Positions 1 through 6,117 of a stretch of DNA of 6,117 bases are shown piece after piece. The notes under the pieces are model-generated. The model was given only the letters and a program-made list of their open reading frames with translations, did no database searches and was not told where the DNA came from. This DNA comes from a virus (taxonomy: Duplodnaviria; Heunggongvirae; Uroviricota; Caudoviricetes), in the IMG/VR virus record IMGVR_UViG_2660238462_000006. One strand, given 5' to 3'. A program made the translations under genes and the position numbers. Numbering within the stretch: position 1 is the stretch's first letter; each line of letters starts with the position of its first letter.

Positions 1-2405
<2,405 letters not shown>

Positions 2406-2431
<26 letters not shown>

Positions 2432-2951
2432 TCAGCAACCCCGGTATCAGTTCATCCAGCGCGGCTGCTTTGTTCATGGCTTTGATGATATCCCGTTTCA
2501 GGAAATCAACATGTCGGTTTTCCAGTTCCGGAAAACGCCGCTGCACCGACAGGGGGATCCCGTCGAGAATACTGGCAATTTCACCTGCGATCCGCGACAG
2601 CACGAAAGTACAGAATGCGGTTTCCACCACTTCAGCGGAGTCTCTGGCATTTTTCAGCTCCTGTGCGTCGGCCTGCGCACGCGTAAGTCGATGGCGTTCG
2701 TACTCAATAGTCCCTGGCTGGAGATCTGTCTCGCTGGCCTGCCGCAGTTCTTCAACTTCCCGGCGCAGCTTTTCGTTCTCAATTTCAGCATCCCTTTCGG
2801 CATACCATCTTATAACGGCGGCAGAGTCATAAAGCACCTCATTACCCTTGCCACCGCCTCGCAGAACGGGCATTCCCTGTTCCTGCCAGTTCTGAATGGT
2901 ACGGATACTCGCACCGAAAATGTCAGCCAGCTGCTTTTTGTTGACTTCCAT
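2406..2951 (-). CDS. Nu1: Terminase small subunit gpNu1 (181 aa; N-terminal winged HTH that binds cosB R elements)
   Basis: 181-aa ORF MEVNKKQLADIFGASIRTIQNWQEQGMPVLRGGGKGNEVLYDSAAV..., near-identical to lambda Nu1 with a few substitutions. It starts ~180 bp from cosN, as in lambda. Confidence 0.95.
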
Positions 2952-3128
2952 TGTTCATTCCACGGCCAAAAACAGAGAAAGGAAACGACAGAGGCCCAAA
3001 AGCTCGTTTTCAGCACCTGTCGTTTCCTTTCTTTTCAGGGGGTATTTTAAATAAAAACATTAAGTTACGACGAAGAAGAACGGAAATGCCTTAAACCGGA
3101 AAATTTTCATAAATAGCGAAAACCCGCG
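2952..3128. promoter_or_regulatory. cosB-like terminase binding region (R1, R2, R3 repeats and an A/T-rich IHF-type site I1)
   Basis: Three GAAAGGAAACG-type elements sit between the Nu1 start and cosN: about 2973-2993 (cagagaaaggaaacgacagag), 3016-3036 (inverted copy, cctgtcgtttcctttcttttc) and 3071-3090 (cgaagaagaacggaaatgcc). An A/T tract ggtattttaaataaaaacattaag lies between R2 and R3. The arrangement matches lambda cosB with a few point differences. Element boundaries are approximate. Confidence 0.7.
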
Positions 3129-3140
3129 AGGTCGCCGCCC
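3129..3140. other. cosN: 12-nt cohesive-end sequence (minus strand reads GGGCGGCGACCT)
   Basis: Plus strand 3117-3160 is gcgaaaacccgcg|aggtcgccgccc|cgtaacctgtcggatcgccg. Its reverse complement, CGGCGATCCGACAGGTTACG|GGGCGGCGACCT|CGCGGGTTTTCGC, is the lambda right-end/left-end junction as I recall it. Confidence 0.85.
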
Positions 3141-3339
3141 CGTAACCTGTCGGATCGCCGGAAAGGACCCGCAAAATGATAATAATTATCATCTGCATGT
3201 CACAACGTGCATCTACGCAATCAAACCACGTCAAATAATCAATTATGACGCAGATATCGTATTAATTGATCTGCATCAACTTAACGTAAAAACAACTTCA
3301 GACAATACAAATCAGCGACACTGAATACGGGACAACCTC

Positions 3340-3573
3340 ATGTCAACGAAGAACAGAACCCGCAGAACAACAACCCGCAACATCCGCTTTCCTAACCAAA
3401 TGATTGAACAAATTAACATCGCTCTTGATCAAAAAGGGTCCGGGAATTTCTCAGCCTGGGTCATTGAAGCCTGCCGCCGGAGACTGTGCTCAGAAAAAAG
3501 AGTTTCTCCTGAAGCAAACAAAGAAAAGAGTGACATTACTGAATTGCTCAGAAAACAGATCAGACCAGATTGA
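3340..3573 (+). CDS. Small basic ribbon-helix-helix-like protein, DUF3950/YlcI-like (77 aa); putative DNA-binding regulator
   Basis: Intact 77-aa ORF in an AT-rich segment where random ORFs are unlikely. Basic N-terminus KNRTRRTTTRNIRFP, then helix NQMIEQINIALDQ, G-x-S turn (KGSG) and second helix NFSAWVIEACRRRL, which is the RHH fold pattern. The SAW motif is the one I recall for DUF3950. The ribosome-binding site is weak, so start choice is uncertain. Confidence 0.7.
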   Translation: MSTKNRTRRTTTRNIRFPNQMIEQINIALDQKGSGNFSAWVIEACRRRLCSEKRVSPEANKEKSDITELLRKQIRPD

Positions 3574-3629
3574 AGCAATTTAGATAATCGTGCAGACTAC
3601 GCCCCTCATATCACATGGAAGGTACTACA

Positions 3630-4040
3630 ATGGCTCAGGTTGCCATTTTTAAACAAATATTCGATAAAGTGCGAAAAGATTTAAACTGTGAATTGTTTTA
3701 TTCTGAACTAAAACGTCACAACGTCTCACATTATATTTACTATCTAGCCACAGATAATATTCACATCGTGTTAGAAAACGATAACACTGTGTTAATAAAA
3801 GGACTTAAAAAGGTTGTAAATGTTAAATTCTCAAGAAACACGCATCTTATAGAAACGTCCTATGATAGGTTGAAATCAAGAGAAATCACATTTCAGCAAT
3901 ACAGGGAAAATCTTGCTAAAGCAGGAGTTTTCCGGTGGGTTACAAATATCCACGAACAAAAAAGATATTACTATACCTTTGATAATTCATTACTCTTTAC
4001 TGAAAACATACAGAGCACATCACAAATGTTTCCACACTAA
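3630..4040 (+). CDS. DUF1398/YbcV-like prophage protein of unknown function (136 aa from ATG 3630; in-frame alternative start at 3615 gives 141 aa)
   Basis: [64 protein letters not shown]... with a GGAAGG Shine-Dalgarno 7 nt before ATG 3630. No signal peptide or TM segment is visible. Family assignment is from memory of the E. coli DLP12 YbcV / lambda right-arm ORF and is unverified. Confidence 0.78.
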
Positions 4041-4308
4041 ACCATAACGTCCGGTTTCTTCTACCCCTGCACCGGACTGGCTGACATGAAGAGCAACCCC
4101 GCGTTCAGTTGACGCGTTAATAACCCGGTGTGCATCGTTTTTGATTATTCCCGCACACTCACGCAGAAGGAATTCCCCGTCGGGCTACGGTCATGGTTAA
4201 TGCGGGAATACGGCGACGATACAGCGCATGATGTGTCAGGCTTGAATACCTTTATCCGTTAAAAGGGATATCAGTTAAGTTATCCCGTGTAGGGTATAAA
4301 CCATTATC

Positions 4309-4335
4309 AAAGCCACTCTGTAGGGAGTGGCTTTT
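4309..4335 (+). terminator. Intrinsic (Rho-independent) terminator hairpin, possibly bidirectional
   Basis: Perfect 10-bp inverted repeat aaagccactc (4309-4318) / gagtggcttt (4325-4334) with 6-nt loop tgtagg, followed by ttttgt on the + strand. On the minus strand the hairpin is followed by tttgataat. Confidence 0.6.
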
Positions 4336-4543
4336 GTAATGACAATAAAAAGCCCCGCGAATACGAGGCTAAATCCTGGTATTTGTAATGACTGGCTCTT
4401 ATCTCAACGCAGCCCCTTACCGCGCGCAAGATGCTCAATATCAAGCATCAGCAATGAGATATTTAATCTGGATTCACTCCAGAAGTGATCACCACCCTGT
4501 CTACAGAGCCAGATGTGAAGGATGATGAGTAAAATTATCGCTA

Positions 4544-5011
4544 TCATCGAAGGCATTGCGTCCTGATATATTCCTGAAGCGTTCTCAGTGCTGTCTGGTC
4601 TCTGATGATTCCGTCCCGGATACCGAGAACGTTTCGTCCAGCAACTGGAGAGAGTTCGACGGTGGCATCATTGCCCATGCCGGAGGCGCTGGAGGTTTCG
4701 GCAGAGGATGGCACAGGGCATTTTCCTTTGACGAGCACCCTGCCACCATTATCAAGCTTCCGCAGAAGAGCATCATTTTCAGCTTTCGCATCAGCTAACT
4801 CCTTCGTGTATTTTGCATCGAGCGCAGCAACATCACGCTGACGCATCTGCATGTCAGTAATTGCCGCGTTCGCCAGCTTCAGTTCTCTGACATTTTTGTC
4901 GCGCTGGGCTTTGTAGGTAATGGCGTTATCACGGTAATGATTAACAGCCCATGACAGGCAGACGATGATGCAGATAACCAGAGCGGAGATAATCGCGGTT
5001 ACTCTGTTCAT
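4544..5011 (-). CDS. Rz: Rz i-spanin (inner-membrane spanin subunit), 155 aa from ATG 5011 (track ORF extends to a GTG at 5023)
   Basis: [40 protein letters not shown]... has an N-terminal TM segment and coiled-coil-like region matching lambda Rz over the first ~85 residues; the C-terminal half diverges. ATG 5011-5009 overlaps the endolysin TGA stop (ATGA). Confidence 0.9.
4585..4791 (-). CDS. Rz1: Rz1 o-spanin (outer-membrane lipoprotein), embedded in the +1 frame of Rz
   Basis: 68-aa [42 protein letters not shown]... with lipoprotein signal and lipobox (VAGC) and a proline-rich mature part. Strong GAAGGAG Shine-Dalgarno 7 nt upstream of ATG 4791. Lies entirely inside Rz, the classic embedded-gene architecture. 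Confidence 0.85.
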
Positions 5012-5505
5012 TGCTGACCCCACAAACAGATTTCACGCTCAATCTCACGACGAGTCATGAGACCTTTCCATTGCTTACCGCCAGCATATGTCCAGCGACG
5101 TAGCTGATCACATGCGTCTTTGATATCGCCCTTGTTTATTTTGCGAAGAAGCGTCGATGTTCTGAAATTGCCAGCACCCACGTTGTAAACGAATGAGTAA
5201 AGAGCGCCGCGCATTGTTTCCGGTATATCGACTTTGATGTACGGGTTAATTTGTCTGGCGACCGTGGCAAGGTCTTTATTCAGGAGGGCTTTGCATTCTG
5301 CTTTGGTATACGTTTTACCGAGCATGATGTCTTTTCCTGTATGCCCGTGACATACAGTCCATACACCAACAATATCTTTGTATGGTATGTAGCTGACACC
5401 TTCCAGACCATCGTTACCACTTGGGCCAGTAATTAACACTGATGCTATAGCAATTGCTCCGCCACCAATAGCAGCAGCAACGGCTTTTCGTAATGATGGA
5501 GGCAT
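5008..5505 (-). CDS. R: SAR endolysin (T4-lysozyme-like muramidase, GH24, with N-terminal signal-arrest-release domain), P21 R-type, 165 aa
   Basis: [57 protein letters not shown]... has a Gly/Ala-rich weakly hydrophobic N-terminal SAR segment, then the E35-D44-T50 catalytic triad spacing of T4-type lysozymes. Near-identical to the P21 endolysin as recalled. GAGGTG Shine-Dalgarno present; the start overlaps the holin stop (TAATG). Confidence 0.95.
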
Positions 5506-5720
5506 TATTCACCTCTCGCAGCCTTGCGCTTATCTTCTTTAATCTTGAAATAAAGGTTTGTCAGGTACGTCAGCAGGCCAAATACCAGGCTACCCAGCAC
5601 ACCTATTGCTGCCCACTGTGAGGGCGTGACTTTATCGAGCAGCTGTAAAAACCAGTAACCGGCACTACCTGCTGAGGTGCCATAGGCGACACCCGTTGTT
5701 AACTTATCCATGGATTTCAT
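5505..5720 (-). CDS. S: Pinholin, S21-type class II holin (71 aa) with dual-start motif
   Basis: [71 protein letters not shown] has two TM segments (the first Gly/Ala-rich) and a charged C-terminus. Met1 (5720) and Met4 (5711) separated by Lys give the antiholin/holin dual start. Matches P21 S21 / DLP12 EssD from memory. The upstream ribosome-binding site falls in the N gap. Confidence 0.93.
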
Positions 5721-5724
5721 AACC

Positions 5725-5734
5725 NNNNNNNNNN
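5725..5734. other. Assembly gap (run of 10 N) / scaffold join
   Basis: Ten consecutive N characters in the sequence. Exactly 10 N suggests an arbitrary-length scaffold spacer. Confidence 1.
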
Positions 5735-5786
5735 TAATAGTCAGGGTCAGGTGCAGATGGCGATGAACGGCGGCATCTATGATGAA

Positions 5787-5809
5787 GGTGATGCTGCCAA
5801 CTTACTGAT
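5787..5809. repeat. IS1 left terminal inverted repeat (IRL)
   Basis: ggtgatgctgccaacttactgat at 5787-5809, the canonical IS1 end. Confidence 0.9.
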
Positions 5810-5841
5810 TTAGTGTATGATGGTGTTTTTGAGGTGCTCCA

Positions 5842-6117
5842 GTGGCTTCTGTTTCTATCAGCTGTCCCTCCTGTTCAGCTACTGACGGGGTGGTGCGTAA
5901 CGGCAAAAGCACCGCCGGACATCAGCGCTATCTCTGCTCTCACTGCCGTAAAACATGGCAACTGCAGTTCACTTACACCGCTTCTCAACCCGGTACGCAC
6001 CAGAAAATCATTGATATGGCCATGAATGGCGTTGGATGCCGGGCAACAGCCCGCATTATGGGCGTTGGCCTCAACACGATTTTACGTCACTTAAAAAACT
6101 CAGGCCGCAGTCGGTAA
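5842..6117 (+). CDS. insA: IS1 InsA (transposition repressor; zinc-finger plus HTH), 91 aa, GTG start
   Basis: [91 protein letters not shown] has C-x2-C...C-x2-C and a C-terminal HTH. The stop codon TAA is at 6115-6117, the window end. Confidence 0.95.
6093..6099 (+). promoter_or_regulatory. IS1 programmed -1 ribosomal frameshift site (A6C) that produces the InsAB' transposase
   Basis: aaaaaac at 6093-6099, just before the insA stop, as in canonical IS1. The insB frame lies beyond the window. Confidence 0.8.

Follow-up and report, generated by a model that had tools for sequence, protein, structure and literature searches.

Genes and features at the essD/IS1 boundary

The DNA analysed here, referred to as the window, is a stretch of 6,117 nucleotides that corresponds to the reverse complement of L024:5389-11505 and sits at the very tip of scaffold JRSN01000068.1 (GCA_001413875.1; 1.97 Mb). 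A single run of N divides it into contig A (1-5724), which carries W, terminase A, Nu1, DUF3950, DUF1398, Rz/Rz1, R and essD, and contig B, which begins at 5735. Contig A is the late region of a lambdoid prophage of the phage-21/DLP12 type, and essD is its final gene. The features on the two sides of the N run are as follows.

4544-5505, minus strand: the lysis cassette apart from essD (R, Rz and Rz1)
4544-5011, minus strand: Rz (PF03245)
4585-4791, minus strand: Rz1, embedded in Rz, with the lipobox LIMVAGC (PF06085 in an identical sister sequence)
5008-5505, minus strand: endolysin R (PF00959)
5505-5720, minus strand: essD, an S21-type pinholin gene of 71 aa, with its ATG at 5720 and the dual start MKSM (PF04971, E = 2e-35)
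5721-5724: aacc, the last 4 nt of contig A, at -1 to -4 of the essD ATG
5725-5734: the 10-N spacer, the sole N run of the window, also present in the public record
5735-5786, plus strand: yigE' fragment, sense strand, 100% identical to K-12 yigE and truncated by IS1
5787-6117, plus strand: the left end of IS1, with IRL at 5787-5809 and insA at 5842-6117 (PF03811 and PF12759)

The dual-start PF04971 holin ("Bacteriophage P21 holin S" in Pfam), the PF00959 lysozyme, the PF03245 Rz and the embedded Rz1 together make up a phage 21-type lysis cassette. In matching complete genomes the holin gene is annotated "essD: phage lysis protein EssD", and the lysis genes bear the names essD, rrrD and rzpD of a DLP12-type cassette. 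The other Pfam matches in the window were to Nu1 (PF07471), DUF1398 and DUF3950. The terminase protein is a common one, present in 3,587 blocks listed.

The order essD-rrrD-rzpD/Rz1, then DUF1398, YlcI/DUF3950, Nu1 and terminase A, is that of the DLP12 / phage 21 late region (quuD - nmpC/ompC-like porin - essD - rrrD - rzpD), with the difference that the Q-porin-RBS part falls outside the window because the contig ends at -4. The window also differs from K-12 DLP12 in that its terminase genes are full-length. A further difference lies at 4344/4345, where a 670-bp segment with a Rha-family regulator gene, found between DUF1398 and Rz in many relatives, is absent. That this is a strain-specific deletion was considered and rejected; other complete genomes share the architecture without Rha, which is therefore a natural mosaic variant. 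The other end of the window begins about 3 bases from the scaffold end, inside the portal gene (a 102-aa fragment; window 1-40, L024 11200-11507), so the head and tail genes are also unlinked to the prophage in this assembly.

An earlier, sequence-only reading had described a holin ATG at 5720 followed by aacc, ten N, 52 bp and an IS1 end with insA, and all of these were found at those places. It had offered two explanations, an assembly join at a repeat or an IS1 insertion in or near the late control region that would leave the prophage lysis-defective. These are taken up below.

The yigE flank and an IS1-corA composite transposon

The 52 bp between the N run and IS1 had been called unassignable in the sequence-only reading. 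The length was correct, and a sequence search now assigns the segment: its letters match nt 237-288 of K-12 yigE (b4482; 765 nt; DUF2233 / phosphodiester glycosidase family) at 100% identity. Native yigE adjoins corA and continues agctatg... where the window has the IS1 end ggtgatg..., so that the two diverge at the next base. Judged by this identity, the flank is not phage late-region DNA. The yigE locus is distant from the DLP12-type prophage on the K-12 map.

The 96-nt yigE'-IS1 junction (yigE 52 nt, IS1 44 nt; window 5735-5830) was found whole and identical in 176 records and in 173 of the 5,426 complete E. coli genomes, and it occurs on both chromosomes and plasmids. In all four copies examined (L004 1579-4820, L030 2579-5820, L001 3579-6820 and L003 1579-4820) it is the inner right junction of a conserved 3,242-bp unit, in which two IS1 copies, the second inverted, enclose 1,706 bp with corA, ysgD and nt 1-288 of yigE. 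The contexts of the four copies were mrk/ydeT in CFSAN061762, NACHT and S8-peptidase genes in 2013C-4991, plasmid pSD134209-1, and the EcPF16 chromosome. Perfect 9-bp direct repeats flank the unit in two of these, caaatttaa on plasmid pSD134209-1 and gatgttgcc on the EcPF16 chromosome, and these target duplications indicate that the unit is a genuine IS1 composite transposon. A search for a named description of an IS1-corA composite transposon found none; a survey of IncHI plasmids notes variable presence of corA only (10.1101/334409). Letter for letter, window 5735-5830 matches the transposon's inner right junction, with the difference that the window holds just 52 bp of the passenger segment and that the outer side of its IS1 is afuB'.

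The IS1 end in the window matches IS1 in 9,833 records. The element is complete beyond the window (768 bp; L024 4953-5719, IRR present), with terminal inverted repeats, an insA with zinc-ribbon and HTH domains and the expected length of about 768 bp, and matching genomes annotate it as "IS1-like element IS1A family transposase". It is followed by afuB'-fbpC-mmuM-mmuP. Its IRL abuts yigE nt 288 and its IRR abuts afuB', so that phage DNA lies at neither end. The sequence-only reading had proposed looking for a target-site duplication; the flanks are atttggccc vs ttcatcata, without any direct duplication of 8-10 bp. The afuB'-IS1 junction was present in 969 complete genomes. EcPF16 carries both junctions on different IS1 copies 1.18 Mb apart, with rclR on the other side of the afuB'-IS1 copy and the yigE'-IS1 junction within the corA transposon. 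Given these separate copies, contig B may itself be a chimera through a collapsed IS1, or may reflect an IS1-by-IS1 rearrangement.

Spacers, contig breaks and the sequence upstream of essD

Scaffold gaps usually imply an order and orientation backed by read pairs or by a reference. The window's endolysin variant was found in 17 contigs only, all of them from one NCBI draft batch (GCA_0014129xx-0014138xx, accessions JRRI to JRSN); a literature search on the batch accession numbers found no paper. Every one of the 19 N runs seen in the batch (10 loci, about 105 kb) is exactly 10 N long, examples among batch loci L019-L027 being L021 3617-3626, L023 6870-6879 and L027 5166-5175, and the runs adjoin prophage segments, IS elements and REP elements. 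For the gaps at L027 5166 and L023 6870, queries matched all 5,426 complete genomes and the two flanks were side by side in none. With the window's own join, then, the sequences on the two sides were not neighbours in any complete E. coli genome in three cases out of three tested, and inspection showed further joins of aceA with a Q fragment and of Rz with aceK. A 10-N run in this batch is thus not evidence of adjacency. The uniform 10 N in the deposited record, the flanks from different loci and the recurrent contig ends are like those of a fixed-length scaffold gap in a draft assembly; unlike ordinary gaps, the batch joins behave as arbitrary concatenations, without the normal implied order and orientation.

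For the window's own join, a gap-spanning query found essD joined to the yigE' flank in none of the 5,426 complete E. coli genomes, the best coverage, 86%, being accounted for by essD plus the 44-nt IS1 end. Exact patterns that closed the contig ends by 0-30 nt gave 0 matches in the viral, species-representative genome and metagenome collections, where a gap-spanning pattern's N may or may not recognise an N letter of the record itself. A pattern for an aacc-type essD with an IS1 end 30 nt or less away likewise gave 0 matches in the species-representative genomes.

Contigs end at the essD start in three assemblies of the batch, at -4 in the source of the window and at -2 in the free-standing contigs L028 (2,163 nt, starting at -2 of essD) and L038 (1,247 nt, a 100% match to window 4476-5722). 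A gap falls at essD +63 in L023, and breaks inside Rz recur in four assemblies at L026 coordinates 6865-6869. A second, Rha+ prophage variant in the batch has the same sequence as the window over 4624-5724 (essD, R and the 5' part of Rz) and differs from it at 24 aligned positions in 4290-4623, by 23 substitutions and one indel. The lysis cassette thus acts as a repeat common to several prophages, and this repeat structure accounts for many of the contig breaks in the batch.

In close relatives aacc is followed by ccacctcgcagacaaagcggg, which contains a Shine-Dalgarno sequence. The native continuation upstream of essD is ccacctcgcagacaaagcgggtg, the relatives reading ccacctcgcag... after aacc. 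Farther upstream the relatives have an AT-rich spacer of about 590 bp, an ompC/nmpC-like porin gene on the opposite strand, and, about 1.9 kb away from essD, the gene quuD for the Q antiterminator. The sequence-only reading was right that RBS, Q and late promoter are unseen in the window; in this arrangement, and against expectation, Q is not directly upstream of the holin. Two other upstream types are found in other prophages, a lipocalin/YbgA type and a methyltransferase type, which depart from the porin type at -2/-5 and at -17, respectively. The end of contig A at -4 is roughly explained by its position near this point, where the prophages of the batch diverge.

Sister contigs L019, L021 and L025 are 100.0% identical to the window over about 4640-5724 (L025 from 4703) and continue gap-free into porin-type upstream sequence; L019 is also 100.0% identical to the window over 2625-4266. 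L020, equally identical in the cassette, runs into the methyltransferase type. Independent metagenome contigs, L032-L034, encode an identical Rz protein within an uninterrupted Q-porin-essD-R-Rz block. Judging from these sister and metagenome contigs, the region upstream of essD is most probably ordinary in the source strain too, although what the sisters show there could come from another prophage copy with the same cassette. A consensus promoter/terminator scan of the normal Q-essD interval (L026) did not locate pR', and promoter-like sites there were fewer than in shuffles.

Other sources of the contig ends were also considered. A k = 53 de Bruijn node would place the start of contig B 52 nt before the divergence of yigE'-IS1 from native yigE; this idea was weakened by other contig ends, which lie in REP elements (about 35 nt, an estimate) or beside SNPs, at inconsistent offsets of 1 to 18 nt. 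A break from a short exact repeat shared with a paralogous holin was rejected, as identity to the second holin of L025 and to those of L012 and L016 is just about 85% and exact runs do not exceed about 17 nt. Confusion with an IS1 beside the paralogous holin of L025 was rejected as well: the insA-like gene in question is part of a divergent member of the IS1 family, some 700 nt off, and what lies upstream of that holin is of the ordinary lipocalin type.

Explanations for the join

We think it very probable that the 10-N run is a fixed-length spacer joining contigs that are not neighbours in the chromosome; no feature of the window shows a disrupted late control region. A draft pipeline would have placed a fixed 10-N spacer between the non-neighbouring contigs A and B, of which A stops 4 nt upstream of the essD start, and B starts in the 52-bp yigE remnant and runs through IS1 into afuB'/fbpC/mmuM/mmuP. 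If A and B are not neighbours, the RBS, the spacer of about 590 bp, the porin gene, Q and the late promoter most likely exist in the strain and either were assembled elsewhere or dropped out of the assembly. Of the two explanations offered by the sequence-only reading, the assembly join is the supported one: the flank comes from yigE and is never beside essD in complete genomes, the 10-N joins of the batch link non-adjacent DNA, the break at the essD start recurs in sisters, and sister and metagenome contigs show the normal upstream region. The proposal of IS1 in the late control region, with a lysis-defective prophage, is not supported for the window, as this IS1 abuts yigE DNA and has flanks without a target duplication, and nothing ties it physically to essD.

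The disruption idea was a reasonable one, and a true IS1 insertion is not implausible a priori, because 28 other complete E. coli genomes have the left end of an IS1, in the same orientation, at 23-640 bp upstream of essD. The 15 records listed show 13 different essD-IS1 spacings, and most genomes among the matches listed are rich in IS1, which matches at about 39 places per record (examples of relatives of window 5721 onward are L005 4322-4370, L006 4322-4350 and L007 4322-7710). Strain EC6 has IS1-ompC-IS1 and then an integrase fragment adjoining ybhC in place of Q and the whole early region; its lysis cassette really is cut off from Q. The window resembles these genuine insertions (E. coli WP8-S18-CRE-02, MS6198 and EC6) in that the IS1 left end points away from essD at a distance of tens to hundreds of bp. 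It differs in what lies between the two, which is continuous phage sequence including the RBS in the genuine cases and a spacer plus yigE sequence in the window.

Two ways in which the linkage might still be real were weighed. In one, the 3.2-kb IS1-corA-yigE'-IS1 composite would have inserted immediately upstream of the essD RBS, with one IS1 and about 1.65 kb of corA-ysgD-yigE' hidden by the gap, and the lysis genes would be separated from Q-dependent late transcription. The hidden segment repeats the native locus and so would be hard to assemble; the composite is mobile, as the 9-bp duplications at two sites attest, and is found in many contexts; the orientation in the window, yigE' and then IRL pointing away from essD, fits one orientation of insertion; and IS1-family events upstream of essD are common. 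Against this, the scaffold enters afuB'/fbpC rather than phage upstream sequence after the right-hand IS1, so that a second misjoin would be needed. No base of IS1 is found at the end of contig A, while other batch contigs extend 64-250 nt into the element, and the same break point is a free contig end in two other assemblies. The 10-N joins of the batch are unreliable, moreover, and no such insertion was seen in any other sequence searched. We regard this insertion as very unlikely.

In the other, a different IS1 copy would truly lie near essD, the scaffolder would have linked contig A by read pairs in IS1, and the 52-bp yigE' flank would come from another copy. The 28 genomes with a nearby IS1 and the EC6 precedent favour this, as does the source's chromosomal flank, which is 100% identical to IS1-rich genomes with at least 40 matching pieces. 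Here too the end of contig A in phage sequence counts against the idea, as do the recurrence of the break in sister contigs without any scaffold link to IS1, the 0 matches for an aacc-type essD with an IS1 end 30 nt or less away in the genome-representative records, and the two other tested 10-N joins, which give no sign of real proximity. We consider it very unlikely as well. One version of a real linkage, that the composite or one of its IS1 arms landed within a few bases of the essD RBS, the spacer hiding about 2.4 kb, and cut the intact lysis and packaging genes off from Q-dependent late transcription, we hold to be highly improbable; if true, it would be a natural example in which a metal-transporter transposon, by way of IS1, domesticated a lambdoid prophage. 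A real linkage would otherwise add one more instance of IS1-mediated prophage decay, a known type of event with precedents in complete genomes such as EC6.

With contigs A and B most likely unlinked, the apparent loss of late control in the window is no ground for calling the prophage cryptic or lysis-defective, and the megabase scaffolds of GCA_0014129xx-0014138xx are unfit for inference of synteny or insertion sites across 10-N runs. Of independent interest, the 52-bp flank is part of a widespread IS1 composite transposon that carries the Mg/Co/Ni transporter gene corA.
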